A stretch of 64,000 bases of DNA from an uncultured Mycoplasmatota bacterium (lineage in GTDB: Bacteria; Bacillota_I; Bacilli_A; RF39; UBA660): NCBI GenBank assembly GCA_900551105.1, contig URUT01000001.1, forward strand, positions 857 to 64,856, in the 5' to 3' direction. This document shows positions 1,611 to 64,000 of this stretch, piece by piece. Within the stretch, counting starts at the first letter, position 1. Each line of letters starts with the position of its first letter. The translations under genes were made by a program, and so were the position numbers. The notes under the pieces were generated by a model. It made no database searches, was not told the origin of the DNA, and saw only the letters and a list, made by a program, of their open reading frames with translations.

Positions 1611-3374
1611 GTGATGTTTATGTTTAAAGAAGAAATTGCCCTTATTCCTAATAAGCCAGGCTCATATCAAATGTATGATAAAAATAATATAATAATCTAT
1701 GTTGGTAAAGCCAAAAACTTACATAAAAGAGTAAGTTCTTATTTTCGTGGAAAACATTCTGGTAAAACGGCCAAGATGATAAGTGACATAGCTTACTTTA
1801 AATATATTGTAACCTCTACGGAGCTAGAAGCATTTATTTTAGAAATAAATCTAATTAAAAAATATAGTCCAAAATATAACATTTTACTAAAAGATGACAA
1901 GAGTTACCCTTATATTGAATATACTAGAAAACCATTTCCTAGTCTAAAAGTAGTAAGATACTTGTCAGCTAAAAAACACAAAGATAAAGTTTTATTTGGC
2001 CCTTATGTAAATGCTTATGCAGCAAGAAGAATAACTAGCTTAATTAATAGATTATACCCATTAAAAAAATGTGAAGGTCTGCCAAAAGAAGTATGTCTTT
2101 ACTATCATATTCATGAATGCTTAGGATACTGCACCAAAAAAGTAGATGAAAACCAAATCCTTGATATGGAAAACGAAATTATTTCTTTCCTTAAAGGTAA
2201 CGAAGATATTATTAAAAATAAATTAAAAGAAAAAATAAATTACTATTCTGAAAATATGAACTATGAGATGGCTTTAGACTTAAAAAAAGAACTAGATTAT
2301 ATGACCGTAGTTTTAGAAAAACAAAAAGTAGAGCTAACTAATAAAGAAGATATGGACATTATCAACTATGTCTTTGAAAATGGTTTTATCTCTCTTGAAA
2401 TTCTATTTATCAGAGCTGGTAAACTAGTTGGTAACTATACTGAAATCAAACCAGTAACCGACGACTACTTAAACGAACTAGAATACTACATAGCGCTTTT
2501 CTATAATAAAAAAGAAGTCCCTAAAGAAATTCTTTTACCAGATGAAATAGATCCAAACATCTTAAAAGAAATTATCAATACTAAATTTATTAAAATAAGT
2601 AGGGGACCAAAACACAAACTTCTTAAAATGGCTAAAGAAAACGCTAGTATTAATTTAGAAAATAACTTCAAAAGAATTTTAAATGAAATAAATAGAAGTA
2701 CCGGTGCTAATGAAGAATTAGAAAAACTGTTAAATATTGGCATCAAAAGAATAGATGTATTTGACAACTCAAATCTTTTTGGTTCCTTTGCCGTATCAGG
2801 TATGGTTGTTTTTGTAGATGGTAAACCAAGTAAGAATAAGTATCGTAAATATAAAATTATGGTTGATAAAAACGATGATTATCACACTATGAAAGAAGTA
2901 ATCTATCGTAGATATTATCGGGCTCTACTTGAAAAAGATTTACCAGACTTAATTTTAGTAGATGGTGGCAAAAGTCAAATAGGAGCAACCAAAGAAGTAT
3001 TAGAAGAACTAAATTTAAATATCAAAGTCTGCGGATTAGTTAAAAATGATAAACACCGCACAAATGACTTACTTGATGGTGATACCTTAGAAATCTATCA
3101 AATAGATCACACAAGTAACTTATTTCACTATCTGACTAGAATGCAAGATGAAGTTCATAGATACACAATAAATTATCATCGTCAAATTAGATCTAAAGGA
3201 AATATCGCAAGTGTTTTAGATAACATTCCTGGAATTGGCGAAAAAAGAAGAAAAGAACTTATTAAAACTTATGGTAGCATCAAAAAAATTAAAGAAGCAA
3301 GTATCACTGACCTAGCAACAATTTTACCATTAGACGTCGCTGAAAAGCTTCATAACTACCTAAAAGAAATCTAA
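1611..3374 (+). CDS. uvrC: excinuclease ABC subunit C
   Basis: N-terminal GIY-YIG motif (PGSYQMYDK...IIYVGKAKNLHKRVSSYF), UvrC-length ORF of 587 aa, and a C-terminal HhH region (IPGIGEKRRKELIKTYGS). Confidence 0.9.
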   Translation: MMFMFKEEIALIPNKPGSYQMYDKNNIIIYVGKAKNLHKRVSSYFRGKHSGKTAKMISDIAYFKYIVTSTELEAFILEINLIKKYSPKYNILLKDDKSYPYIEYTRKPFPSLKVVRYLSAKKHKDKVLFGPYVNAYAARRITSLINRLYPLKKCEGLPKEVCLYYHIHECLGYCTKKVDENQILDMENEIISFLKGNEDIIKNKLKEKINYYSENMNYEMALDLKKELDYMTVVLEKQKVELTNKEDMDIINYVFENGFISLEILFIRAGKLVGNYTEIKPVTDDYLNELEYYIALFYNKKEVPKEILLPDEIDPNILKEIINTKFIKISRGPKHKLLKMAKENASINLENNFKRILNEINRSTGANEELEKLLNIGIKRIDVFDNSNLFGSFAVSGMVVFVDGKPSKNKYRKYKIMVDKNDDYHTMKEVIYRRYYRALLEKDLPDLILVDGGKSQIGATKEVLEELNLNIKVCGLVKNDKHRTNDLLDGDTLEIYQIDHTSNLFHYLTRMQDEVHRYTINYHRQIRSKGNIASVLDNIPGIGEKRRKELIKTYGSIKKIKEASITDLATILPLDVAEKLHNYLKEI

Positions 3375-54850: not shown

Positions 54851-55261
54851 GTGATAAAGTTGAAAAAAATAATTATATTGCTCTTAATATTAATAATTCC
54901 AGTAACAGTAAAAGCTGAAGAGTTAGACATTACTGCTAAGTCTAGTATACTAATAGAAGCTTCAACCGGTGAAATATTAAGTGAAAAAAATAGCGATGAA
55001 AAGCTTGCTCCTGCATCTATGACTAAAATCATGACAATGCTTCTAATTATGGAAAGCCTTGAAAAAAATGAATATAGTCTAGAAGATAAAGTAAATATCA
55101 GTACTAATGCCGCAAGCATGGGAGGAAGTCAAGTCTTTCTAGAGGCAGGTTCTGAACTAAAAGTAAAAGAACTACTAAAAGCAATTGCTATCGCATCCGC
55201 TAATGATGTAGTAGTGACAAAAAAGCAGTCGCAAGTTATAGGCGAAGAAATAATAATATAA
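54851..55261 (+). pseudogene. dacA: D-alanyl-D-alanine carboxypeptidase (PBP5/DacA-like) gene truncated after about 136 codons
   Basis: Signal peptide, SxxK active site (PASMTKIMT) and alignment to B. subtilis DacA through ...AIAIASAND. The frame then stops after GEEIII, although full-length DacA homologues run about 380-440 aa. The downstream DNA encodes an unrelated Rep-like gene. Confidence 0.55.
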
Positions 55262-55311
55262 CTACTTTAAAACCTTATATTTTAGAGTATTATTATAAAT
55301 TGTATATATAA

Positions 55312-55338
55312 TTAAAAAGCCGATTAGGCTTTTTTTTG
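55312..55338 (+). terminator. intrinsic terminator
   Basis: AAAAGCCGATTAGGCTTTTTTTT, with stem AGCC / GGCT. Confidence 0.5.
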
Positions 55339-55350
55339 GAGGTGAATTCA

Positions 55351-56109
55351 ATGTCAATTTTTAAGATAGAAAAAAATAAAAATTATACAGTTATGAGTAA
55401 TCATCACTTAAGAGATAAAAATTTAAGTTATAAGGCTAAGGGATTGTTGTCATTTATGTTATCATTGCCAGAAGATTGGGACTACTCAATGAATGGGTTA
55501 GAATCAATAAGCAAAGAAAGCATAAAAGCAATTAGGAATATACTTCAAGAATTAGAAGAAAATAAGTATTTGATAAGAACAAGAATGCAAGATAATGAAG
55601 GGAAATTTTATTATGATTATTCAATTTACGAAATACCATTTGATATAAACCCGTATTACCAAAAAGGGCATACGGTAAAAGGGCGTACCGAAAAGGACAT
55701 ACAAATAAATACTAATAAACAAAATACTAAAAAACAAATAGATAAAGATGATAAAACCAAAATATCATCTTTTTTTGTGCCAGAAGAACATAATATTTTA
55801 ACCTTAGAATTAATTGATAAGGGTTTTATAAAAAAAGAAGATATACAAATTTTTTATTATGATAATCTATTTGAACAGTTAATACAAGATGGCAACTCTT
55901 ATAAAGATTTAGTTAAAATAATTCATTATATAATTCCGAGAGTTTTAAAAAGAAATTTTAAAGATGAAGATGGTAATGAAATAGAAAATAAGTTTGGATA
56001 TTTTAAAAATGCAATTATTAGCAATATAAATAAACTTAATACGGATATAGAAGATTTATGGGGAGAAGAAGAACTAGAAGATATATATAGTTCCAATATG
56101 GAAAGATAA
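55351..56109 (+). CDS. plasmid / ICE-type replication initiator-like protein (RepA_N / DnaD-like winged-helix N-domain)
   Basis: YTVMSNHHLRDKNLSYKAKGLLSFMLSLPEDWDYSMNGLESISKESIKAIRNILQELEENKYLIRTR matches the conserved N-terminus of Firmicute plasmid/phage Rep proteins (Y..v.N.l.rd..LS.kAKGl.afm.SlP.dW.f...gL.......k.ai...i.eLe..gYl.R). RBS GGAGG lies 8 nt before the ATG. Confidence 0.6.
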   Translation: MSIFKIEKNKNYTVMSNHHLRDKNLSYKAKGLLSFMLSLPEDWDYSMNGLESISKESIKAIRNILQELEENKYLIRTRMQDNEGKFYYDYSIYEIPFDINPYYQKGHTVKGRTEKDIQINTNKQNTKKQIDKDDKTKISSFFVPEEHNILTLELIDKGFIKKEDIQIFYYDNLFEQLIQDGNSYKDLVKIIHYIIPRVLKRNFKDEDGNEIENKFGYFKNAIISNINKLNTDIEDLWGEEELEDIYSSNMER

Positions 56110-56296
56110 GCATAAAAAAATCGTCTCTAAACTAGCAGACGATCTACTTCTCAGTTGAAAAATACTACATTACTGCATCAACTGAATCAAATTCACACGA
56201 TACTACATATGCTATTTGATAAATCAATAATAACACAAAAATTGCCTTAATGCAACAAAAAAATCCAAAATACTCCACTTTTTTTGTCAAAATCTA

Positions 56297-56324
56297 TTGA
56301 CTTTTCTTTTTAAAACTATATAAT
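56297..56324 (+). promoter_or_regulatory. strong sigma-A promoter of the island operon
   Basis: TTGACT, 16 nt, TATAAT. The greA-like start at 56384 follows after RBS AAAGGGGGAA. Confidence 0.55.
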
Positions 56325-56383
56325 AAATAATCGGTAAGACCAAATATCTATTTAATAATAATCTTTGAAAGGGGGAATAATAA

Positions 56384-56932
56384 ATGAAAAATAATGAAGA
56401 AAAGTTATATTTAGATAATGATGGCTATCAGAGATTACTTGAAGAAATAGATTTATTAAAGGCAAAACTTGCAAAAAATGGAAAAGAAAAAGGAGAAGCC
56501 TATTCTGGTGCAGTAGGTGACGGATGGCACGATAATTTTGCTTTTGATGAAGCCAATATGCAAGAAAGAATGATTTTAGGTCAACTTAAAGAATGTTACC
56601 AAAAATTAGAAAGAGCAGTAATTGTAGAAAGACACGATGATGAAACATTAGTTGATGTCAACGATATTGTTACAGTAGATATGATTTTCGGACCTGATGA
56701 TAGTGAAGAATTAGAATTTAAATTAGTTGGCTCTGTAGGATCACACACTTCTGATAATAGTGGTATTCAAGAAGTTTCAATTAATAGTCCATTGGGTAAG
56801 TCAGTTTACCATAAAAAAGTCGGAGAATCAGCAAGTTATAAAGTTGAGAGTAGAATCTTTAACATAGAAATTTTATCAAAGGTTTCTGAAAAAGATTTAG
56901 AAAGTGGAATTCAAAGAAAAAAAACTAGATAA
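56384..56932 (+). CDS. GreA/GreB-family (Rnk-like) transcription factor
   Basis: N-terminal coiled coil (GYQRLLEEIDLLKAKLAK) and C-terminal FKBP-like Gre domain (VSINSPLGKSVYHKKVGESASYKVESRIFNIEIL matches iS..SPlG.allGkkvGd......p.g...y.I..i), in a 182-aa ORF. Confidence 0.65.
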   Translation: MKNNEEKLYLDNDGYQRLLEEIDLLKAKLAKNGKEKGEAYSGAVGDGWHDNFAFDEANMQERMILGQLKECYQKLERAVIVERHDDETLVDVNDIVTVDMIFGPDDSEELEFKLVGSVGSHTSDNSGIQEVSINSPLGKSVYHKKVGESASYKVESRIFNIEILSKVSEKDLESGIQRKKTR

Positions 56933-56948
56933 TATAAGGAGGGCAATT

Positions 56949-57074
56949 ATGAACAAATTTATTGTAAAATTAAAAGAAAAACAAAAATATAAAGAATTAA
57001 AAACTAGTGTTTGTTCATCAAAAAATGAATTATTTTGTTGTCCCCTAAAAAAATATTTAAAGAGTATCAATTAG
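56949..57074 (+). CDS. 41-aa Lys-rich, Cys-containing peptide MNKFIVKLKEKQKYKELKTSVCSSKNELFCCPLKKYLKSIN: candidate precursor or leader peptide
   Basis: Near-perfect RBS AAGGAGGG lies 5 nt before the ATG. Its last codons form the 5' arm of a terminator hairpin, and the ORF sits between greA-like and the biosynthetic operon. Cys are at positions 22, 31 and 32 (tandem TGT TGT). Confidence 0.45.
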   Translation: MNKFIVKLKEKQKYKELKTSVCSSKNELFCCPLKKYLKSIN

Positions 57075-57107
57075 TTAACAATTTTAGCTTTTGATACTCT
57101 TTTTTTC
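57059..57107 (+). terminator. intrinsic terminator / attenuator between the peptide ORF and the downstream operon
   Basis: Twelve-bp stem AAAGAGTATCAA / TTGATACTCTTT with a 20-nt loop, then TTTTTC. The 5' arm contains the peptide stop codon. Confidence 0.6.
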
Positions 57108-57124
57108 AAATGTAAGGGTTTAAG

Positions 57125-58837
57125 GTGATGAAAATGAAAGAAGAAAAATTTCCAATTATAAAGGCTGGATACATATTTAATAAATTTAATGCTAAAGTAA
57201 ATATTCCAGTAATATTAAATAAACAAGAAGTTGAAATTAAATATCCGTGTAGGCTAGATGCAATGGCTATAAATCCAGCGGCAGTTTGTTATAATGATAG
57301 TATGGTTTTTACTCCTGGTGAAGTAGTAATATCGCTAAAAAAATTTATAAAGGTTAAAATTACTGTAAAAAGTGAAAGTGGAGGACAATTGAATATCTCC
57401 AAACGAACAAAAAGAAAAGTTTTAGTAAAGCATTCTTACTTATTAATGTGTAATGCTTTAAATATCTCTCCTTCTTTGGATATTGATGTTGATGATGATG
57501 ATATACCAAAACATTGTGGTTTTGGATCAAGCAGTTCTACAATATCTGCTGTTGCTTCTGCTATTAATGAACTATATTCGTGTCCAATTAATGATAAAGA
57601 TTTAATTATATATTTAGCATCTAATCACGGAGAAGAAATCTCTGACAATGATGAAGAAAATTTAAAAGTAGTTCAATGTATTGGTGGTGGTGCTACTAAT
57701 GGGTTAACTGAAGAAGGCATTATAATTATTGCAGGTAAATCAACTGCTATTGCTAAAATGAAATATGAATCAGAAGTGTTAATAGGTTTTCCAAATGACT
57801 TTGTTCAAAAAGATGCTAAAGTATTAATGGAACTAGAAGAAAAAAATTTATGGAAGTTTAAAAAGACTGGCGAAGAATATGCTGAAAAAATAGCATACGA
57901 TTTACTACATAAAGCATTACCAGATATGGCTAATGGTAATATAAAAGAATTAGCTGATGTTGTATTTGATTATAGATTTAATATGGGAAGTAATGAAAAT
58001 TGTTCATTTGTTTATGACGGGTTAATGAATATTAGTGATAAAATAAGAAAACTCTATGAAAATAATGACTGTGAATTTTTAGCATTGTCTTCTGTTGGTC
58101 CTGCATTCTTTGTATTAGTAAAGAATGAAAATCAAAAAAAGAAATGTAAAGAATTTATGGAAAAATTAGATTTAAAAGTAATTGAATCATCTGTTTGTAA
58201 TACCAAATATATAGTTTCTAAATTTTCTAATGCACAATGTTTTTGGGAAAAAGAAAATGTTGGAGAGTCATTTAGAACACGAAAGCCATCAAAATATATT
58301 ACGGATCAAATTGATGCTTTAAATGTATCAGATAAAAAGTGTATCGATATAGGATGTGGTGGTGGAAGATATTCCAAATATTTACATCAAATGAAAGCAA
58401 ATGTATTAGCAATTGATAAATATCAAGAGATGTTTGATCATAATTCAAATATAAACTTTGTTCAATGTAAAATGGATAATATTCCTGTGGTTGAAAATTC
58501 ATATTATTTAGCATTATCTATTGGAGTAATACATAATGCCATAACAATTGAAGAATATAAAAATTCATTAAAAGAAATTTATAGAATTCTTAATAAAGAT
58601 GGATATGCGATATTATCGACATTTACAAATGATGTTATTACTAGTGATTTGATAAAAACAGGGGAAAATACTTATTTAATTAAAGATAGACCACCAATGG
58701 TATTATTGAGTAAAGAACAAATACAAGATTATGTGTCTGAGGTTGGATTTACAATAATTAAAATAGTTGATGAACATATAACTGATGTTGGAAGTGGAGA
58801 AAGAAATGTTTATACAGTCCTTATTAAAAAACAGTAA
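57125..58837 (+). CDS. two-domain enzyme: N-terminal GHMP-kinase-fold domain plus C-terminal class I SAM-dependent methyltransferase
   Basis: GHMP ATP-binding motif PKHCGFGSSSSTISAVASAI at about aa 128. C-terminal MTase motif I CIDIGCGGGRYSKYL, post-I acidic residue (LAIDKY) and motif II region. 570-aa ORF. Confidence 0.6.
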   Translation: MMKMKEEKFPIIKAGYIFNKFNAKVNIPVILNKQEVEIKYPCRLDAMAINPAAVCYNDSMVFTPGEVVISLKKFIKVKITVKSESGGQLNISKRTKRKVLVKHSYLLMCNALNISPSLDIDVDDDDIPKHCGFGSSSSTISAVASAINELYSCPINDKDLIIYLASNHGEEISDNDEENLKVVQCIGGGATNGLTEEGIIIIAGKSTAIAKMKYESEVLIGFPNDFVQKDAKVLMELEEKNLWKFKKTGEEYAEKIAYDLLHKALPDMANGNIKELADVVFDYRFNMGSNENCSFVYDGLMNISDKIRKLYENNDCEFLALSSVGPAFFVLVKNENQKKKCKEFMEKLDLKVIESSVCNTKYIVSKFSNAQCFWEKENVGESFRTRKPSKYITDQIDALNVSDKKCIDIGCGGGRYSKYLHQMKANVLAIDKYQEMFDHNSNINFVQCKMDNIPVVENSYYLALSIGVIHNAITIEEYKNSLKEIYRILNKDGYAILSTFTNDVITSDLIKTGENTYLIKDRPPMVLLSKEQIQDYVSEVGFTIIKIVDEHITDVGSGERNVYTVLIKKQ

Positions 58838-59891
58838 TTATGTTGTTTCTAAAAGAAACTTTCTATCAGATTATTCAAGAATTGAATCTAAAAAAATAGA
58901 TATGACATTGTCTGGAAAATTTTTATCTAGTTATGGTAAATTAAAAATAAATCCAAAGGAATTTGACAAATATCCATCACACGATGAGATTAATAAGTTA
59001 GAGCAAGAAATTAAAAATCACGAAAATATACAACAAGAAATAATTTTAGGTGCAGGAGCAAATGGCATTTTACAAAATATCATAAAACTGTTTTTTGTTA
59101 AAAGAGGAAATTTGGTTACACCATTTTATACATTTAATCAAGTTGAGTTTGGAGTTACATCTTTTAATGGTAAAACATATAGAGTTTTTACTGATAATTA
59201 TAAAATTAATTTTAATAAAATGAAAAAAGCTATTAATAGAAAAACGAGAATGGTTTATATTTGTAATCCTAACAATCCAACTGGTCTATATGAAAATTGT
59301 GAAAATATTATAAATTTTGCCAAAAGTATAAATGTTCCTGTTGTCGTTGATGAGTCTGGAATAGAATTTACAAATAAAAAAAGTTTATTGAGTTATAAAA
59401 ATATTCCTAAAAATTTATTAATTGTAAGATCATTTTCTAAAGCCTATGGTATTGCAAATTTTAGACTTGGTTATCTTGTGTGTAACCCCGAATTTAAGCA
59501 AAGTTATCTTGAAAATATAACGACAAACGAATTTTCTGGGTTGTCTTGTATAGTTGCGAACGAGTTGTTGAAAAATGGAAAAGAAAATATAACGAATAAT
59601 ATTAAATCTATAACCAAAGAGAAAAAAGTAATAATTAAAAAACTTGATAAAATAGGAATTAAATGTATTTTAAGTGATTCAAACACTATAATGACAGACA
59701 GCGTTTTTAAAAACGAATTTTTAAAACTACTTGAACAAAATAATATATCAGTTGTTCCAGTATATGATGAAAATAATAAATTGCATATAAGAATTGCAAT
59801 TCAAGATGAAATTACAAATAAAAAGTTTGTAGATATTTTAGTAAAAATAATGAACGAATATCAAGTATTAGAAGATGGAGGTAAAAAATGA
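58785..59891 (+). CDS. PLP-dependent class I/II aminotransferase-fold enzyme (HisC / CobD-like)
   Basis: ICNPNNPTG motif and PLP-lysine motif RSFSKAYGIANFRLGY. The ORF overlaps the upstream stop, and the true start may be at a downstream ATG (58806 or 58902). Confidence 0.65.
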   Translation: MLEVEKEMFIQSLLKNSNYVVSKRNFLSDYSRIESKKIDMTLSGKFLSSYGKLKINPKEFDKYPSHDEINKLEQEIKNHENIQQEIILGAGANGILQNIIKLFFVKRGNLVTPFYTFNQVEFGVTSFNGKTYRVFTDNYKINFNKMKKAINRKTRMVYICNPNNPTGLYENCENIINFAKSINVPVVVDESGIEFTNKKSLLSYKNIPKNLLIVRSFSKAYGIANFRLGYLVCNPEFKQSYLENITTNEFSGLSCIVANELLKNGKENITNNIKSITKEKKVIIKKLDKIGIKCILSDSNTIMTDSVFKNEFLKLLEQNNISVVPVYDENNKLHIRIAIQDEITNKKFVDILVKIMNEYQVLEDGGKK

Positions 59892-61057
59892 AAATATCGT
59901 TAGCAACAAATTTTGATAATAAATTAATTGATCAAATTAAAGATTATCCTGTGTATGAAGTTTATGGAAAAATGAAACACGATTATATTGGTGGAGGAAG
60001 ACCAGATAACACTTTGTCCAATATAGATAAAGAATTATTTGAATCTCACATTAAAAAGGTAAGAGAAGCAGGTATTAGATTTAATTATTTACTGAATGGT
60101 AGTTGTTTATCCAATAATGAGCAAGATCCAGCGTGGCAATCTGAATTCAAAAGGTTTTTAGAATATTTAAAAGATATAGGCGTTAATGCTTTGACAATAA
60201 CTAATCCGTACATTTTAATGTTTGTAAAAAAATATTTTAAAGAAGATTTTAAAGTTAGGGTTTCCACATTTGCTTGTATTGACTCTTACACAAAAGCAAA
60301 ATACTGGGAAGATCTTGGTGCAGATTACTTATGTGTAGATTTTGTAAAAGTAAATAGAGATTTTAAGACACTAAAATATATGGTTGATAATTTAAAAACA
60401 GCTAAAATAGAGATTTTAGTAACAAATAGTTGTTTAAAAAATTGCCCTATGATATATACACATACAACTGGCTTATCTCACGCTTCGAATAAAGATAAAA
60501 ATAGTAATTCTTATGAAGATTGGAGTTTGTTTTATTGTCAAAAAAAAGAATTAGAAAATATTGAAGAATATATTAGATCACCGTGGGTTAGACCTGAGGA
60601 TATTAAATTTTACGAAAATATTGGTATAGAACATTTTAAAATTACTGAAAGAGGTTTTCCAACTGAGGAATTGGTGAAAAGAGTGAAAGCCTATACTGAT
60701 AGAAAATATGAAGGTAATTTGTTAGATTTAATACAAGGACACGGCGTAGTAGCAAAAGATGATTTGAAATTACAAAGGCAAAGTGTTAATAGTAGAAAAG
60801 AAATATATGAAGAAATTAGACGAGTTAGAGGATTAGGAAGACAAAGAGAATGTGAGAGACATATATATATTGATAATAAAAAACTTGATAATTTTATAAC
60901 ATTCTTTATAGATAATAAGTGTACAGGCAATTGTAACTCGTGTGGATATTGTAATATGATTGCTAAAAATGTAATTACTAAAAACAAAGAAGTATGTGAT
61001 TATTTATTGGAATTATATAACAAATATGATGAAGTAAAGATGGATGTAAATGAGTAA
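59888..61057 (+). CDS. U32-family (peptidase U32 / RlhA-TrhP-like) protein with a C-terminal Cys cluster
   Basis: The TIM-barrel segment order matches the U32 topology (GVNALTITNPYIL; RVSTFACIDSYTKAKYWEDLGADY...VNRDFK; KIEILVTNSCLKNC, similar to vElevFvHGalC..yS). C-terminal CTGNCNSCGYC. Assignment by pattern only. Confidence 0.45.
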   Translation: MKISLATNFDNKLIDQIKDYPVYEVYGKMKHDYIGGGRPDNTLSNIDKELFESHIKKVREAGIRFNYLLNGSCLSNNEQDPAWQSEFKRFLEYLKDIGVNALTITNPYILMFVKKYFKEDFKVRVSTFACIDSYTKAKYWEDLGADYLCVDFVKVNRDFKTLKYMVDNLKTAKIEILVTNSCLKNCPMIYTHTTGLSHASNKDKNSNSYEDWSLFYCQKKELENIEEYIRSPWVRPEDIKFYENIGIEHFKITERGFPTEELVKRVKAYTDRKYEGNLLDLIQGHGVVAKDDLKLQRQSVNSRKEIYEEIRRVRGLGRQRECERHIYIDNKKLDNFITFFIDNKCTGNCNSCGYCNMIAKNVITKNKEVCDYLLELYNKYDEVKMDVNE

Positions 61058-61637
61058 GATTGGGATTGATATAGCGGATACTATTATAGATGTTTGGCCT
61101 TCTTTAATAAAAAAAGCAAAACAATTCAACCTAGAACATTCAAATAATAAACCAAGTGAGGAAAAACATTTATATTTGCCAGAAGATATATATGGCTGGT
61201 CTAAAGAGGAAAAGGAAGAATTTTGGGAGTGTTATGGACAAGAAATAACATTTTCATCACCAGTAAAAAAGGGAGTAGTTGATACTTTACAATATTTTAA
61301 AGAATTGGGATATTTAATATATTTTATTACTGCAAAGACAGAAGATACATATGCTGATTTGGAAAAGAAAATTATAGAATTGTTAGTGAAAAATAATTTG
61401 CCTTATGACAAAATATTTATGCAAGTTAGTAATAAAGGAAAATTTTGTTTTGAAAATGGAATTGAATATTTAATAGATGATTCTTTTGATAATTGTTCAA
61501 AAGCTAATCAGTATGGAATAAAGAGTCTATTGATGACTAACGAATACAATATTGACAGAGTACTATACGACAATATGTATAGAATCAATGAATTTTCGGA
61601 AGCAAAAAAATATATTAAAAAAAATAGGAGGTTTTAG
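61050..61637 (+). CDS. HAD-superfamily NT5C-like nucleotidase (paralog of 40211)
   Basis: KIGIDIADTIIDV (degenerate DxDxT), YFITAKT and YLIDDSFDN. Overall colinear with the 40211 protein. 195-aa ORF. Confidence 0.5.
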   Translation: MSKIGIDIADTIIDVWPSLIKKAKQFNLEHSNNKPSEEKHLYLPEDIYGWSKEEKEEFWECYGQEITFSSPVKKGVVDTLQYFKELGYLIYFITAKTEDTYADLEKKIIELLVKNNLPYDKIFMQVSNKGKFCFENGIEYLIDDSFDNCSKANQYGIKSLLMTNEYNIDRVLYDNMYRINEFSEAKKYIKKNRRF

Positions 61638-62239
61638 TGAAAAAAGTATTGTTTTTGGTTGGACCACACGCAAGTGGAAAAACATACTCATCAAGAGAGT
61701 ATATTGCAAAAAATAAAAATATTGGAATGATTGATACTGGACCAATTATGAGAAGAATACATAAAGAAATGGATCCAGATACTTCAATGGGAGATTGGGT
61801 AAAAAAATTAGAAGTTCAGTATGGAAAGGATATTACTTCTCAATTGATTTCAAATGAAATAGGTAAAATAATGTCTAATGATGAGTGCGATAAATTTATC
61901 TTAATTGGATTTAGAACATTAGAAGGAATAGCATTTACTATTCAACATTTGAATATAGAAGATTTTAGTATTTTATATGTAGATGCAACGCAAGAATTAT
62001 TATATAAAAATTATTTAGCAAGAGAGAAGAAAAATATTTCATTTGAAGATTTTAAAAACTATTTACAAAATGAGTTAAATAGTGGGCTTACAAAATTAAG
62101 GGAAATGGCATTAGATGGTGATATGGTTGATTATTATTATCGTTTCAGTAATAATGATAGTTTTGAAGAAAAAATAGATAGCCATTTAACTAATTGTGAG
62201 ATAAAAAAATTAAGAAAGGAGCCTAAAAATGGAAAATAA
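61637..62239 (+). CDS. P-loop NTPase, predicted nucleoside / nucleotide kinase
   Basis: Walker A VLFLVGPHASGKTY at the extreme N-terminus in a 200-aa ORF. The size and layout are typical of small (d)NMP or nucleoside kinases. Confidence 0.5.
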   Translation: MKKVLFLVGPHASGKTYSSREYIAKNKNIGMIDTGPIMRRIHKEMDPDTSMGDWVKKLEVQYGKDITSQLISNEIGKIMSNDECDKFILIGFRTLEGIAFTIQHLNIEDFSILYVDATQELLYKNYLAREKKNISFEDFKNYLQNELNSGLTKLREMALDGDMVDYYYRFSNNDSFEEKIDSHLTNCEIKKLRKEPKNGK

Positions 62240-62822
62240 TTATATTTGGCCTATTGAACCACAATATAAAGTCTTGGAACACGACAGATATGGTTTAAGG
62301 CCAGTGCATATGATACTTGGAAAACCTAGATTTCATTCTGGATTTGATATTACTGCACAAACTCTTACCCCAGTAAAAGCATCAATTGAAGGAATTGTTG
62401 TATCAGCAGGTTTAGACGAAAAGATTATATCTGGAAGTGCAAAATGGAATGAAAGATATGGCAACAAGGTTGAAATATTGGATAGAAATGGTAGAAGACT
62501 AGTCTATGCACATTTAAGAGAAGTTTTAGTTCAACTTGGTCAGCAAATAGAACAAAGCCAAATAATTGGTTTAAGTGGTTGCTCTGGTGGTTCAAGAATA
62601 CCTCATTTACATTTTGAAGTAAGAAAATTTGATACTAGTCATTCTGGAGAAGAAAATACTATTAATCCATTGGAGATATTACCATACTATGATTTGGAAA
62701 ATTTAGCAAAACACTTTGATGAAGAACCCTATGCAGAAGTATGGGAAAAATTTCTAGAAAATCCGTGGGGAATGACTGATAACGATATTCCTTATGCAAA
62801 TTGCAGAAAATTAATAAGATAA
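62229..62822 (+). CDS. M23-family (LytM-type) metallopeptidase domain protein, no signal peptide
   Basis: HxxxD (HSGFDI), central YGNKVEILDRNGRRLVYAHL and C-terminal HLHFEV motifs in a 197-aa ORF. Confidence 0.65.
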   Translation: MENNYIWPIEPQYKVLEHDRYGLRPVHMILGKPRFHSGFDITAQTLTPVKASIEGIVVSAGLDEKIISGSAKWNERYGNKVEILDRNGRRLVYAHLREVLVQLGQQIEQSQIIGLSGCSGGSRIPHLHFEVRKFDTSHSGEENTINPLEILPYYDLENLAKHFDEEPYAEVWEKFLENPWGMTDNDIPYANCRKLIR

Positions 62823-62860
62823 TAAAAATATATGGTATAATAGAGTTGGAGGATGATAAA

Positions 62861-63439
62861 ATGGAAAAACCAATATATTTAACTGGTAATAAGGGGAAAT
62901 TTGAGGAGGCACAACATATTTTTAAAGATATGTATGGATTTGATATCGAGATTAAAAATCCTGATTTTGAAATCATTGAAATACAAGCAAAAAGTTGCAA
63001 AGAAGTAGTTGCATTTAGTGTAAAATATGCTTGTGAAAAATTAGGCAGACCTTGTATTAAATCAGATTCTGGTTTATATATAGATGCTTTAGGAGGCCTA
63101 CCTGGTCCTTATAATGCATATTTTGACAAGCAAATTGGTGTTGATAAGTTCTTGGAATTATTCAAAAACGAAACTAATAGAAAGGCAAGATTAGAAGATT
63201 GTTTTGCTTATTGTGAGCCAGGACAAGAACCTGTTATATTTACTGGTGGTGGAACTGGTACAATAGCAACAGAAGCAAGAGGTAATTTGGGAAGATGGCA
63301 CGATAAGTTTTATATTCCAGATGGGGAAACAGAAACATTAAGCGAATTAAGAGAAAAAGATAGAGATTATGAAGCAAAATTTTGGGGTACTGCTAAATAT
63401 GATTTTGCTGAATGGTTTAAAAACAATAAAATGCAATAA
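62861..63439 (+). CDS. non-canonical purine NTP pyrophosphatase (Ham1 / RdgB / ITPase family)
   Basis: IYLTGNKGKFEE (similar to ATGN.GK..E), KSDSGLYIDALGGLPGPYNAYF (similar to DDSGL.vdAL.G.PGvySaR) and CFAYCEPG. Start at ATG 62861 after RBS GGAGG. Confidence 0.7.
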   Translation: MEKPIYLTGNKGKFEEAQHIFKDMYGFDIEIKNPDFEIIEIQAKSCKEVVAFSVKYACEKLGRPCIKSDSGLYIDALGGLPGPYNAYFDKQIGVDKFLELFKNETNRKARLEDCFAYCEPGQEPVIFTGGGTGTIATEARGNLGRWHDKFYIPDGETETLSELREKDRDYEAKFWGTAKYDFAEWFKNNKMQ

Positions 63440-63460
63440 AAAATTTTGATAGGGGGTCAA

Positions 63461-64000
63461 ATGATGAAAAAGGTTACAATCATTGCGGGACCGTGTGCAG
63501 TTGAATCTGAGGAACAAATAGTTAGGATTGCCATAAAACTAAAACAAATTGGTGTTGATTATTTAAGAGGCGGTGCATTTAAACCACGAACTAACCCAGA
63601 CAGTTTTCAAGGATTGGGAGATTTGGGAATAGAATATCTTTTAAAAGCTAAAGAAATAACTGGCTTACCAATTGTTACCGAATTAATGACAATAGAACAG
63701 GTAAGAAAATATGCAGATAAAATTGATATTATACAAATTGGTAGTAGAAATATGTATAATTATGAATTATTAAAAGAATTAAGCCATTATTCAAAACCTG
63801 TATTATTAAAAAGAGGTTTAAGTGCCACATATAGTGAATGGATTAATGCTGCAAAATATATAAATAATGAAGACAAGGTTATTTTATGTGAAAGGGGAAT
63901 AAGAAGTTTTGACACAACAACAAGAAATGTCCTAGATATTCAAGCAGTTCCGTATATTAAAAATAACACAAAGCATAAAATTTTTGTTGATCCTAGTCAC
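63461..64000 (+). CDS. aroF: 3-deoxy-7-phosphoheptulonate (DAHP) synthase, type I-beta catalytic barrel only (3' end beyond window)
   Basis: IIAGPCAVESEEQ, LRGGAFKPRTNPDSFQGLG, QIGSRNMYNYELLKEL, VLLKRG, VILCERGIRSFDTTTRNVLDIQAVP and IFVDPSH. These match Thermotoga / Bacillus-type DAHP synthase better than KDO8P synthase. RBS GGGGG precedes ATG 63461, and there is no N-terminal regulatory domain. Confidence 0.75.
   Translation, partial: MMKKVTIIAGPCAVESEEQIVRIAIKLKQIGVDYLRGGAFKPRTNPDSFQGLGDLGIEYLLKAKEITGLPIVTELMTIEQVRKYADKIDIIQIGSRNMYNYELLKELSHYSKPVLLKRGLSATYSEWINAAKYINNEDKVILCERGIRSFDTTTRNVLDIQAVPYIKNNTKHKIFVDPSH

Follow-up and report, generated by a model that had tools for sequence, protein, structure and literature searches.

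The stretch of DNA analysed (64,000 nucleotides, hereafter the window) comes from an uncultured gut bacterium, in which a mobile (integrative) element carries an operon that is widespread yet undescribed and that, judging from the families of its proteins, probably encodes a pathway to a non-canonical nucleotide together with a Gre factor dedicated to it. The cassette was found in about 30 species-level genomes and is conserved across phyla, its carriers being gut Bacilli, Mollicutes, Clostridia, two CPR bacteria, one MAG labelled as an archaeon and one gamma-proteobacterial MAG. As the preliminary description of the window had supposed, the system appears to be undescribed: no description of the cassette was found in PADLOC, the phage and plasmid collections or the searchable literature, and the PADLOC check proposed there returned for the window cassette no defence model, a generic methyltransferase match excepted. 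We put at about even the proposal that the operon makes a non-canonical NTP in the cell and carries self-protection (Ham1 and the Gre factor); a ForT-like C-ribosylation is likewise evenly balanced, and a defence role is tentative.

The conserved core has five parts: a GHMP domain with a SAM methyltransferase, an oxygenase, an adenylate-kinase-type NMP kinase, a divergent Ham1 and, often, a GreA paralogue. The oxygenase slot is occupied by a U32 protein with a HisC-like PLP enzyme or by a PrnB/IDO-like haem protein. Among 31 loci, the GHMP/MT gene was present in all 31, the PLP enzyme in 28, U32 in 27, a GreA-like gene in at least 12, DAHP synthase (DAHPS) in 5 and the PrnB-like gene in 3. Variant loci add NDK (adjoining in one of them), NUDIX, HD or a Nuc_deoxyrib_tr-like gene. 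In some genomes the cassette is chromosomal, with ribosomal-protein, pyrG or metK genes as neighbours.

Table 1. Features of the element and cassette in the window
Feature	Coordinates	Strand	Basis or diagnostic trait
Truncated host D-Ala-D-Ala carboxypeptidase (Peptidase_S11, dac) ORF	54851..55261	+	Pfam S11 on equivalent ORFs
Left junction, attL core AATGATGT	55202..55210	.	At SxN-motif codons of dac gene; alignment of 7 copies
Hairpin AAAAAGCC-GATT-AGGCTTTTT, T-run after	55314..55334	+	Possible insulator against dac read-through
HTH_36 protein, replication-initiator-like N-terminal domain	55351..56109	+	Pfam HTH_36 E 1e-7; PHROG replication-initiation families E 3e-21
Sigma-70-type promoter TTGACT-16-TATAAT	56297..56324	+	11/12 matches, top-scoring site of region
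GreA paralogue, Gre-fold RNA-polymerase secondary-channel factor	56384..56932	+	Tip motif GDGWHDNF, residues 45-52
41-codon leader ORF with 4 cysteines	56949..57074	+	Shine-Dalgarno AAGGAGG upstream
Intrinsic terminator (putative attenuator)	57059..57109	+	12-bp stem, 20-nt loop with inner stem, U-tract
GHMP_N + class I SAM methyltransferase fusion	57134..58837	+	N-terminal GHMP superfamily, C-terminal methyltransferase
HisC/CobD-family PLP enzyme	58806..59891	+	SFSK lysine motif
U32-family Fe-S protein, putative O2-independent prephenate-dependent hydroxylase	59888..61057	+	C-terminal CxxxCxxCxxC
HAD-like putative phosphatase/nucleotidase	61050..61637	+	PHROG 420 and 415 matches only
Adenylate-kinase-type nucleoside-monophosphate kinase (P-loop)	61637..62239	+	Motifs GPHASGKT, IDTGPIMR, IGFRT
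Cytoplasmic M23 metallopeptidase	62229..62822	+	HxxxD + HxH intact
Ham1/ITPase-family NTP pyrophosphatase	62861..63439	+	Pfam 109 bits
Type I-beta DAHP synthase catalytic core, cut by window end	63464..64000	+	PRK08673 348 bits (cut-off 335); TIGR01361 311 bits (cut-off 268)

In the window, the cassette belongs to an integrative element that has entered the host dac gene at about 55,205. In the alignment of seven copies, host sequence diverged as far as AATGATG and identical element sequence followed; the left flanks were unlike one another among loci L001-L008, and the element has entered at least six hosts. The host portion of the dac ORF reaches to about 55209 and the final 17 or so codons are element-encoded, so that the island, previously taken to begin at a plasmid-type Rep gene, has its true left end inside the host gene. 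The hairpin downstream of the junction would insulate the element against read-through from dac. The supposed Rep does have a replication-initiator-like N-terminal domain but is an HTH_36 protein; its gene is missing from the chromosomal cassette copies and is a component of the element, outside the cassette. The island is slightly more AT-rich than its surroundings, as had been noted (about 27.5% against 30% GC), but a shift in GC skew is the clearer signal.

The promoter of the preliminary description was recovered as a strong promoter and the best site of the region, and the GreA paralogue gene is the first transcribed from it. The series of nine closely packed genes was also found, with overlaps of 1-32 nt at every junction save a 38-nt gap before Ham1 and a 24-nt gap before DAHPS, and with a ninth gene (237 aa, without family match) past the window end. 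No internal terminator was predicted in the string of enzyme genes, and the overlapping enzyme genes are a single unit. The leader ORF ends in a terminator hairpin, as reported before, its UAG stop lying inside the 5' arm (57059-57102, -17.3 kcal/mol, z -6.5 by folding, with a T-run 3' of the hairpin), and the stem shows compensatory changes relative to locus L020. Since diverged cassettes repeatedly have, at the same upstream position, a short ORF whose stop falls in the 5' arm of a terminator, whereas the encoded peptides are unrelated in sequence, length and cysteines, the 41-codon ORF and the terminator are interpreted as a leader-peptide attenuator. The enzyme genes would be transcribed only when a ribosome at the end of the leader blocks formation of the hairpin.

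The families first proposed for the GHMP-methyltransferase fusion, the HisC/CobD-like PLP enzyme, U32 with its cysteine cluster, the P-loop kinase, the M23 peptidase and Ham1 were confirmed by family matches and motifs. The fusion is found in at least 346 clusters, with 59-98% identity among the matches listed. Its N-terminal domain is assigned from sequence to the beta-RFAP-synthase/ForT branch: the closest out-group relatives give their best scores, over most of the length, on beta-RFAP synthase models, and the motif PKHCGFGSSSS aligns to PQHSGFGSKTS of ForT, the segment containing His99 and Thr106, which bind PRPP (PMC8183095). Arg43 is invariant and lies on strand 1. The AF2 model of the domain (pLDDT 89) has homoserine kinase as its top structural match, and natural PrnB-GHMP fusions were found. 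The methyltransferase domain gave weak CmoB and Methyltransf_9 matches. The suggested phage origin was not borne out, as the fusion was found neither in 50,697 phage records nor in IMG/VR and U32 is the only cassette protein with phage relatives.

The closest relatives of U32 are the T-even phage gp50-type proteins, in the 5-hydroxycytosine cluster, and a gp50-type U32 gene adjoins chorismate mutase in one phage. The conserved cysteines of U32 are C149, C182, C186 and C217 together with the C-terminal C345/C349/C352/C355, and the family is known for prephenate chemistry with phenylpyruvate as by-product (PMC10990095). In the three loci where the PrnB/IDO-like haem protein takes the place of U32, the PLP enzyme is missing as well. 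The PLP gene always adjoins GHMP-MT, to which it is translationally coupled, and not U32, so that a role in the main pathway fits better than scavenging of a by-product. DAHPS, complete in locus L001 (240 aa), aligned only to positions 93-330 of a 338-position model, hence the absence of the N-terminal regulatory domain, as had been proposed.

The kinase carries adenylate-kinase NMP-binding motifs, and several of its homologues match PF00406 (ADK). Ham1 is the most conserved cassette protein (79-94% identity across loci, against 42-73% for the others), has an altered base-pocket motif (GRWHDKFYIP for GFGYDP) and was also found fused to the kinase. The presumed NT5C-like nucleotidase had PHROG matches as its only support; it lacked a Pfam HAD match, and its DIADT motif is atypical. 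It is an accessory gene, seen in four locus families. The M23 peptidase has no signal peptide, and about half of the loci carry it.

The GreA paralogue matched the Pfam GreA_GreB C-terminal domain (E 1e-8) and, at 62 bits, fell under the NCBIfam GreA cut-off of 145; its AF2 model (pLDDT 81.5) matched GreA, GreB and Gfh1 with probability 1.00, in agreement with the earlier GreA/Rnk-like assignment. The tip keeps its acidic character, and its sequence would be compatible with a cleavage-stimulating (GreA) and an inhibitory (Gfh1) factor alike. The family with this tip is small (35 clusters), and five of six sampled contexts are clear nucleotide-analogue cassettes: two pVip+VakA+U32 loci, one PRTase/guanylate-kinase/Ham1 locus and two cassettes like that of the window, one of which also contains a radical-SAM gene that matches pVip weakly. 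The sixth, locus L098, is only loosely nucleotide-themed. In locus L097, the PRTase locus among the five, an ordinary PRTase with a base transporter occupies the slot equivalent to GHMP.

The adenylate-kinase-type motifs, the conserved Ham1, the NDK, NUDIX and HD variants and the Gre factor common to pVip loci agree with the nucleotide pathway that was one of two readings first offered. Its steps, from GHMP through the Gre factor, are proposed from family membership. From PRPP and an aromatic or heteroaromatic acid that is electron-rich, the GHMP domain would form a C-ribonucleotide (an NMP analogue). U32 would hydroxylate the ring without O2, with prephenate as oxygen donor, the cassette DAHPS feeding the shikimate pathway for its supply; the PLP enzyme would clear phenylpyruvate or provide the aglycone. 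In presumably aerobic lineages, the haem oxygenase, sometimes fused to GHMP, would replace U32, the PLP enzyme and DAHPS. After methylation by the fused methyltransferase, the NMP kinase would convert the product to the diphosphate and triphosphate. The divergent Ham1 (and HAD and NUDIX proteins in other loci) would limit the pool of analogue NTP, and the Gre factor would let the host RNA polymerase trim analogue-blocked transcript 3' ends. The M23, HAD-like and 237-aa proteins have no role in this model; against it, the fusion of NMP kinase and NTP pyrophosphatase would resemble a futile cycle unless the domains differ in substrate, and the CPR genomes probably have no shikimate pathway from which prephenate could come.

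The enzymes could instead modify the base of a canonical nucleotide by the logic of T-even phages, which we regard as unlikely. Ham1 would convert a canonical (d)NTP to the (d)NMP, whose base U32 would hydroxylate (pyrimidine C5 being one possible site) and the methyltransferase would turn into the methoxy derivative. The NMP kinase would then re-phosphorylate the product so that RNA or DNA could take it up, and GHMP would be a genuine kinase that phosphorylates the new hydroxyl or a side substrate. The nucleic-acid-linked U32s known so far (TrhP, RlhA) all act at pyrimidine C5, and the nearest relatives of the cassette U32 belong to the gp50-type, RB69-type cluster, in which 5-hydroxy-dCMP is made and re-phosphorylated. 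The weak CmoB/Methyltransf_9 matches and the structural match to homoserine kinase also fit, and Ham1, with its altered base pocket and kinase fusion, recalls the T4 enzyme pair gp56 plus gp1. However, the universal and highly conserved GHMP domain would be left without a necessary role, its out-group relatives resemble beta-RFAP synthase and not kinases, the haem enzyme fused to it suggests that the substrate is a small aromatic molecule, a PRTase stands in the equivalent slot of L097, and neither a thymidylate-synthase-like enzyme nor a dedicated polymerase accompanies the genes.

A housekeeping or conditionally useful metabolism instead of a weapon is quite improbable; the product would be a nucleotide-like cofactor, an RNA-modification precursor or an aromatic or phospho-amino-alcohol metabolite (GHMP kinase and CobD-like decarboxylase, as in the PduX-CobD route). 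The chromosomal neighbourhoods suit it, the small-genome carriers (RF39-like, CPR) could need a salvage route, and the adjacent, coupled GHMP and HisC/CobD-like genes resemble the pairing of L-threonine kinase with threonine-phosphate decarboxylase in cobamide synthesis. Against this stand the patchy distribution, with one copy on an element that has reached at least six hosts, the apparently attenuator-gated expression, the Gre factor shared with pVip loci, the recurring Ham1, NUDIX and HD 'sanitiser' genes and the PrnB variants that dispense with the PLP enzyme. Very improbable is an inducible resistance to an external nucleoside-analogue antibiotic, in which cassette enzymes would add a hydroxyl, methyl or phosphate group to the drug, Ham1 would hydrolyse its triphosphate and Gre would rescue stalled RNA polymerase: control by a leader-peptide attenuator is a usual feature of inducible resistance genes, and Ham1, NUDIX, HAD and the Gre factor would all lessen the harm of an analogue, but the NMP kinase, the adjoining NDK and the PRTase with base importer of a sister cassette activate nucleotides instead of inactivating them, and the same Gre family stands beside pVip, a producer. 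The other initial reading, a RiPP-like pathway with the 41-aa peptide as precursor, M23 as leader protease and methyltransferase/PLP tailoring, is effectively refuted: the enzyme genes do follow immediately on a short four-cysteine ORF and include one for a peptidase, but the corresponding ORFs of diverged cassettes share only position and the stop within the terminator stem, about half of the loci lack M23, the core enzymes are nucleotide enzymes, and no RiPP recognition element, cyclodehydratase, lanthionine synthetase or sactisynthase-type enzyme was found in the window cassette.

For the non-canonical nucleotide pathway, the most likely role would be an antiviral or other antagonistic one, in which a foreign polymerase is poisoned. 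The want of a PADLOC defence match in the cassette and the copies among housekeeping genes (ribosomal-protein genes in locus L100, for example) speak against defence. The antagonistic role is suggested because the Gre paralogue and U32, and once DAHPS, adjoin genuine pVip/VakA viperin genes, which are known to be antiviral: both bona fide loci with the paralogue (n = 2) contain U32, and one of them DAHPS as well.

The 55.2-64.0 kb region was found to be a single co-oriented unit, and the operon of the preliminary description was recovered nearly item by item, including the promoter, the Gre-like gene, the leader ORF and the overlapping enzyme genes. Downstream of the leader, the genes encode, in this order, a fusion of a GHMP_N domain with a class I SAM methyltransferase (GHMP-MT), a HisC/CobD-family PLP enzyme, a U32 protein, a HAD-like protein, a P-loop kinase, an M23 peptidase without signal peptide, a Ham1 protein and a DAHP synthase (DAHPS). 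The junctions between these genes are overlaps of 1-32 nt or gaps of at most 38 nt, and no internal terminator was predicted within the operon. In the loci recovered via the identical M23 protein, the DAHPS has a full length of 240 aa and is followed by a ninth gene of 237 aa, for which no family match was obtained, and the operon is closed by a convergent XRE repressor. The DAHPS belongs to type I-beta (PRK08673, 348 bits for a cut-off of 335; TIGR01361, 311 bits for a cut-off of 268) and, since it aligns to model positions 93-330, the N-terminal regulatory domain is absent. Some of the initial labels had to be softened. The gene of the "NT5C-like nucleotidase" is present and its name, drawn from PHROG hits only, is a weak one. 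The "plasmid-type Rep" is an HTH_36 protein whose N-terminus resembles phage replication initiators, and the plasmid label is equally weak for it; its gene is part of the mobile element and lies outside the cassette. The island is more AT-rich than its surroundings, but only slightly (about 27.5% versus about 30% GC), and it is marked more clearly by GC skew, which is +0.20 to +0.36 across the element (window 55001-64000) and about 0 to +0.15 in the preceding 25 kb.

Positions of the features of the operon, the element and the homologous loci
Feature	Location	Remarks
Truncated dac ORF with element junction	window 54851-55261, junction ~55202-55210; L001-L006 ~2580-3000	L001-L006: copies of the element
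Promoter TTGACT-16-TATAAT	window 56297-56324	best match of the promoter scan
GreA-like ORF	window 56384-56932	182 aa
Leader ORF	window 56949-57074	41 codons, good Shine-Dalgarno
Hairpin followed by U-tract	window 57059-57102	leader stop codon in 5' arm; -17.3 kcal/mol, z = -6.5
pVip and VakA loci	L096 8444-18140; L099 152-8268	
Gre-containing sister cassette	L097 1216-8989	
XRE repressor pair	L001 12678-14708	
Cassette variant with decarboxylase	L013 15580-18274	chromosomal
Cassette with extra GNAT and radical-SAM genes	L100 4566-5892	
Three-part fusion P0164 and HD gene	L093 8001-10652	
Phage U32 gene	L009 5986-7146	E. coli O157 typing phage 6
Phage U32 and chorismate mutase genes	L010 5983-7149 and 8094-8480	Proteus phage PM2

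The cassette is spread much wider than the element. GHMP-MT fusions form at least 346 clusters, and the protein was found in about 30 species-level genomes, namely MAGs of gut Bacilli, Mollicutes and Clostridia, two CPR bacteria, a MAG labelled as an archaeon and a gamma-proteobacterial MAG; in the last four, GHMP and MT are encoded by separate adjacent genes. When 31 loci were compared, GHMP and MT were present in all of them, the PLP enzyme in 28, a GreA-like gene in at least 12, a HAD-like gene in four and a PrnB-like gene in three. The proposed co-occurrence with GHMP-MT stood for U32 (27 of 31) and was limited to five loci for DAHPS. The P-loop kinase and Ham1 were detected in nearly all loci, often as one fused protein, M23 in about half and NUDIX in several. 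Variant loci add a NUDIX gene (free or fused to GHMP-MT), an HD phosphohydrolase or a Nuc_deoxyrib_tr-like gene and, in L094, a nucleoside-diphosphate kinase.

Some of these variants deserve a description. In L013, located between pyrG and the dCMP deaminase gene, M23 is replaced by a PLP decarboxylase of the Orn/DAP type and a second aminotransferase of 505 aa, which hints at an amine-bearing version of the product. The window-type cassette of L100 has gained a GNAT acetyltransferase and a 290-aa radical-SAM protein with the motif CSDCNTKCKHC and a weak match to pVip (38 bits). In P0164, a protein of the GHMP family, HEPN_Toprim_N, PrnB-like and GHMP domains are fused and the gene is followed by an HD (YfbR-like) gene; its contig bears a TrwC relaxase and ParA, and therefore looks plasmid-like. 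This fusion could represent a reduced cassette with a link to conflict systems.

Judged from its predicted enzymes, the best-supported reading of the operon is that it would make a non-canonical NTP. Adenylate kinases are recognised by a P-loop and by the TGDxLR and GFPRT motifs. Their counterparts in the cassette P-loop kinase, GPHASGKT, IDTGPIMR and IGFRT, show no or almost no variation among 17 sequences, and several homologues carry a precomputed PF00406 assignment; the protein thus combines the P-loop and the NMP-binding motifs of an adenylate-kinase-type NMP kinase. Ham1 is the most conserved protein of the cassette, with 79-94% identity across loci in which GHMP-MT shares 59-73% and the PLP enzyme 42-61%. 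It was assigned by Pfam (109 bits, cut-off 22.5) and fell below the cut-off of the NCBIfam equivalogs (144 versus 203); the base-pocket motif, GFGYDP in E. coli RdgB, is replaced by an invariant GRWHD.F(Y/F)IP. In such a pathway, the operon would carry with Ham1 a pyrophosphatase limiting the pool of its own product.

The function of the GHMP domain (AF2 model, pLDDT 89) separates this reading from its main rival, in which the nucleotide theme is kept, the GHMP domain is a kinase and a canonical NMP would be modified at the base in the manner of the T-even phages. Sequence and fold searches against the PDB tie between a kinase and a PRPP enzyme. In the P-loop, PKHCGFGSSSS for the cassette and PQHSGFGSKTS for ForT, the His99 position is occupied by a His and the Thr106 position by a Ser; both residues are among those binding PRPP in ForT (PMC8183095), and homoserine kinases have Gly or Ser at these positions in the alignment. 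The whole ForT set (Arg19, the His99-Ser104 loop, Thr106 and Arg135) was looked for, and apart from the His and Ser matches no counterpart of Arg135 was recognised. An Arg of strand 1 is invariant, out-group relatives included. The GHMP family is small (185 clusters among 1.84 billion) and its nearest out-group members score best on beta-RFAP synthase models, mostly over the whole length and ahead of homoserine kinase in nine cases out of ten. In the sister cassette L097, the equivalent position is held by an ordinary PRTase together with a base importer. The P-loop His and Ser, the strand-1 Arg, the beta-RFAP-like out-group and the PRTase of L097 therefore favour the PRPP-dependent branch, whereas the missing counterpart of Arg135 and the NHGEE sequence, which resembles the Mg site of kinases, hold the ForT-like assignment down. 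On balance, a ForT-like and PRPP-dependent GHMP domain appears to us an even proposition.

The cassette U32 protein matches PF01136 (31 bits for a cut-off of 22.4, E = 2e-7), and its residues C149, C182, C186 and C217 are each shared by 93-100% of 29 sequences, in agreement with a U32 TIM barrel bearing the four-Cys Fe-S motif. It carries an extra C-terminal CxxxCxxCxxC group; no match to the TrhP, UbiU and UbiV models of NCBIfam was obtained and no Peptidase_U32_C domain was reported in it. A linkage of U32 with the shikimate pathway is seen in the five cassette loci with DAHPS and in the pVip locus L096. The mechanism proposed for U32 hydroxylases uses prephenate and releases phenylpyruvate (PMC10990095), so that prephenate use by the cassette enzyme would provide a rationale for the linked DAHPS. 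The release of phenylpyruvate may also explain the HisC-like aminotransferase; counting against such a by-product role, the PLP gene always adjoins that of GHMP-MT and not that of U32.

Loci L037-L039 and L094/95 lack U32, the PLP enzyme and DAHPS and have a PrnB/IDO-like haem protein in their place, and in P0162 and P0164 the PrnB/IDO-like protein is fused to the GHMP domain. This exchange mirrors the O2-independent and O2-dependent pairs formed by UbiU/V and UbiI/H/F and by TrhP and TrhO (PMC10990095). A shared substrate for the oxygenase and the GHMP domain would agree with both the exchange and the fusions, and the oxygenase module would be fitted to the oxygen regime of the host.

The cassette U32 is most closely related to the gp50-type U32 proteins that RB69-like T-even phages encode (PHROG E = 6e-32, 26-32% identity over 71-93% of the length). 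Their genes, as in the E. coli O157 typing phage 6, lie in the 5-hydroxycytosine/arabinose cluster, and that of Proteus phage PM2 has a chorismate mutase gene close by. In the work on 5-hydroxycytosine in RB69 and DLP3, the 5-hydroxy-dCMP synthase needs O2, and gp50, labelled "sugar or heterocycle reductase", was left unexplained (PMC13326640). Because the known synthase needs O2, the same reaction may be carried out anaerobically, with prephenate, by the phage U32. As regards the T-even manner of base modification, the modified-dNTP pathways of these phages (T4 hmC; RB69/DLP3, PMC13326640) share with the cassette an NTP pyrophosphatase, then a base modification on the NMP and then a dedicated NMP kinase, but the cassette lacks both a thymidylate-synthase homologue and a glycosyltransferase and does not lie in a phage context. 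The homology of the cassette HAD and kinase to gp51 and to the thymidylate-kinase-like protein of the RB69 cluster was not significant. The PLP-enzyme matches in "phages" were partial, none of them in T-even phages, and they do not support a U32-PLP enzyme link in phages.

For the reading as a maker of a non-canonical NTP, the Gre paralogue encoded upstream of the leader is a second source of evidence. Its AF2 model shows two helices (12-42 and 52-77) followed by a beta domain, and Foldseek matched it to GreA, GreB and Gfh1 (probability 1.00, E = 1e-8 to 1e-11); the N-terminal coiled coil, the acidic tip and the C-terminal globular domain of GreA/GreB are all present, the orientation being read against the GreA sequence. 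Both acidic residues of the tip motif GDGWHDNF, D46 and D50, are the same in all 15 sequences of the family alignment; in the two CPR/gamma sequences outside this alignment, D46 is replaced by S or G and D50 is kept. The protein falls below every NCBIfam cut-off for GreA/GreB and, as the best GreA score is 62 bits for a cut-off of 145, it is a paralogue rather than an orthologue of the housekeeping factor. The family comprises 35 clusters.

The contexts of six family members, chosen as not obviously located on cassette contigs, were looked up. Two members (L100 and L101) are directly upstream of the same type of cassette, that of L100 being the one with the extra radical-SAM gene weakly matching pVip. 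Two others, 40-45% identical to the window protein, stand at the head of loci L096 and L099, which encode a bona fide pVip (142 and 146 bits in PADLOC) and a VakA-like kinase (E = 1e-15 to 1e-17). Besides one or two Gre paralogues, both loci encode a LysR regulator, a HAD protein, methyltransferase-like proteins and a U32 of about 695 aa whose N-terminus is TrhP-like; in L096, a DAHP synthase, a second Gre paralogue, a metallo-beta-lactamase (Apyc1-like) and a CYTH protein are found in addition. This gene content suggests that the viperin products would be further hydroxylated or methylated. The fifth context, L097, contains HD, Gre, a Rrf2-like regulator, a Vut_1 (YhhQ-like) transporter, a HGPRT-like PRTase, a guanylate kinase, a FemX-like (FemAB-like) aminoacyl transferase, a thymidylate-kinase-methyltransferase fusion and Ham1, and looks like a system that would import a base analogue and turn it into a modified nucleotide, which may be aminoacylated. 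The sixth, with NUDIX, ASCH, HIT, WYL and GNAT neighbours, is only loosely nucleotide-themed. GreA-like genes also accompany the CPR and gamma variants of the cassette. A viperin-type radical-SAM enzyme is present in L096 and L099, and none was found in the window cassette.

Most simply, a Gre factor inherited with enzymes making nucleotide analogues would serve the host RNA polymerase, either by excising analogue-terminated 3' ends or by gating NTP entry. The position of its gene before the attenuator would then be an "immunity first" layout. The association with pVip makes an antiviral or antagonistic role probable. In our literature search, no paper joining viperin and GreA in prokaryotes was found.

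The arrangement of the window leader was observed upstream of the first enzyme gene in L011, L013, L017/L100, L019/L101, L020 and L022: a promoter or a GreA-like gene is followed by a Shine-Dalgarno-preceded ORF of 28-42 codons, the stop codon of which is in or at the 5' arm of a strong terminator (z from -3.1 to -6.5 across loci). The differences between the window and L020 terminator stems are compensatory. Termination would be blocked by a ribosome that has reached the end of the ORF and sits on the 5' arm, while a lagging one would let it happen. The same design of a short translated ORF overlapping an intrinsic terminator, where the position of the ribosome sets read-through, is known from leader attenuators of the pyrBI type and from resistance leaders of the erm, cat and vmlR types, but no alternative antiterminator helix was identified in the cassette leader. 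UTP sensing as in pyrBI was considered and set aside; four of the seven leaders are richer in T over the 45 nt preceding the terminator (0.40-0.58 versus 0.30-0.34), a modest enrichment that is not compelling in an AT-rich genome, and the U-rich tract, of which every leader has one, only hints at such a mechanism. An Rfam search (E <= 0.1) of L001, L011 and L013 gave only an unrelated SAM riboswitch upstream of metK, and riboswitch control was rejected.

In the predicted fold of the leader RNA (window 56936-57050), the Shine-Dalgarno region (AAGGAGGGCAAU) pairs with UUGUCCCCU, which encodes the "CCP" residues; because of this pairing, the cysteine codons may serve RNA structure and not peptide function. 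The 41-aa Cys peptide had been put forward as a RiPP precursor, and this proposal was abandoned: the peptides of the seven leaders (window, L011, L013, L017, L019, L020 and L022) have no common sequence and no common cysteine pattern, only their position and terminator overlap being conserved, and Pfam and NCBIfam scans of all window proteins detected no class-defining RiPP enzyme (RRE-containing, YcaO, LanM or rSAM-SPASM).

The M23 protein of the window is indexed in identical form in 114 blocks of a metagenome collection, and the left flanks differ among the eight loci shown. When seven copies were aligned over the upstream ORF, the 5' part was a host-specific and diverged Peptidase_S11 (dac) gene up to the codons of the SxN motif (...AATGATG), past which all seven are identical; the element therefore starts at about 55,202-55,210 and targets dac genes. 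The insertion at these codons was found in at least six different host backgrounds and each time cuts the dac gene down to about 120-137 aa. The occurrence of one element at a defined junction in different hosts is that of an integrative element, and its targeting of dac looks unusual. It extends for at least 9 kb to the right of the window, and the 20.6-kb loci end before its right end; only two XRE repressors, small ORFs and a SpaA/TED adhesin are seen there. In L001, the two paralogous 144-aa double-HTH repressors, each divergently paired with small ORFs, are just downstream of the cassette and are followed by small membrane proteins and then by the adhesin of more than 940 aa. Regulation and transfer of the element are probably encoded in this stretch. 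By its GHMP-MT protein (97% identity), the closest GTDB genome is that of the uncultured "Mollicutes" gut MAG UMGS1266, where the cassette is on a 9.1-kb contig. An origin from a phage or a plasmid was rejected, as the 17.7-kb element had no megablast match in phage and plasmid collections, the GHMP-MT fusion no tblastn match in phages and the GHMP domain no relatives in IMG/VR. The check for a known defence system was carried out with PADLOC, which returned a generic methyltransferase match (mad2) and weak DndA/SspA noise on the PLP enzyme, and this explanation was dismissed.

Assembled in full, our proposal is tentative and, taken as a whole, rather unlikely to be right in every part. The GDGWHDNF Gre family would consist of immunity proteins for makers of polymerase-poisoning nucleotides (viperins and at least two undescribed types of cassette), and the window type would build an aryl or heteroaryl C-nucleoside triphosphate via a ForT-like PRPP enzyme, an O2-independent, prephenate-dependent U32 and a methyltransferase, under a ribosome-gated attenuator and on a dac-targeting element. 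We know of no answer to how cells making chain-terminating or toxic NTPs spare their own RNA polymerase. If the proposal is true, a dedicated analogue-excising Gre factor would be a direct and testable answer for viperin hosts, and the paralogue could be used as a marker for further nucleotide-based conflict systems. A new natural nucleotide analogue would come from abundant uncultured bacteria of the human and animal gut and from CPR bacteria, and it could be a C-nucleotide, a class valuable as antivirals. Prephenate-dependent U32 hydroxylation would reach beyond quinones and RNA to free nucleotides, and anaerobic 5-hydroxylation would be suggested as the role of the unexplained U32 of RB69-like phages. 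Even with another product, the operon is a conserved cross-phylum pathway without a described counterpart.

Each cassette protein belongs to a known superfamily, and the making of modified NTPs by cells or phages is already known. In the literature and databases searched, the combination of a cross-phylum spread, a switch between U32 and a haem oxygenase, a leader attenuator and, above all, a dedicated Gre family common to viperin loci has no described counterpart, and searches pairing U32 with GHMP or Ham1, PrnB with GHMP and viperin with GreA brought up no account of the cassette. Both the product and the principle of immunity through a Gre factor may well be new in kind.

Among known systems, ForT (formycin), PyfQ (pyrazofurin) and beta-RFAP/RHP synthase (methanopterin) resemble the GHMP domain by the P-loop motif, the strand-1 Arg and the beta-RFAP matches of its out-group relatives. 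These synthases join PRPP to an aromatic acid through a C-C bond, with decarboxylation. They differ from it by an identity of about 17% and by cassette scores far below the curated cut-offs (29 versus 328 bits); the cassette GHMP is fused to a methyltransferase, the partner enzymes of the formycin, pyrazofurin and methanopterin pathways are all absent, and the hosts are gut anaerobes and CPR bacteria instead of actinomycetes or methanogens. The prephenate-dependent U32 hydroxylases UbiU/UbiV, TrhP and RlhA have in common with the cassette U32 the Pfam match, the Cys ligands and the DAHPS linkage, whereas the latter is very remote, has its additional Cys cluster and presumably acts on a free nucleotide or small molecule. 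The pVip systems act against phages through a chain-terminating ddhNTP. Like the proposed pathway of the cassette, systems of pVip and VakA arrive at a modified NTP by acting on nucleotides and have a nucleotide kinase of their own, and in L096 and L099 they share with the cassettes the Gre paralogue, U32, methyltransferases, HAD and, for L096, DAHP synthase. The window cassette is unlike them in having no radical-SAM viperin and only a generic methyltransferase in PADLOC, and the described pVip systems are without its signature enzymes (GHMP-MT, HisC-like, short U32 and Ham1). Finally, the Gre paralogue has the fold of GreA, GreB and Gfh1 and keeps acidic residues at its tip, but it forms a tiny family with the GDGWHDNF tip, and its gene belongs to nucleotide-analogue cassettes and not to the housekeeping set.
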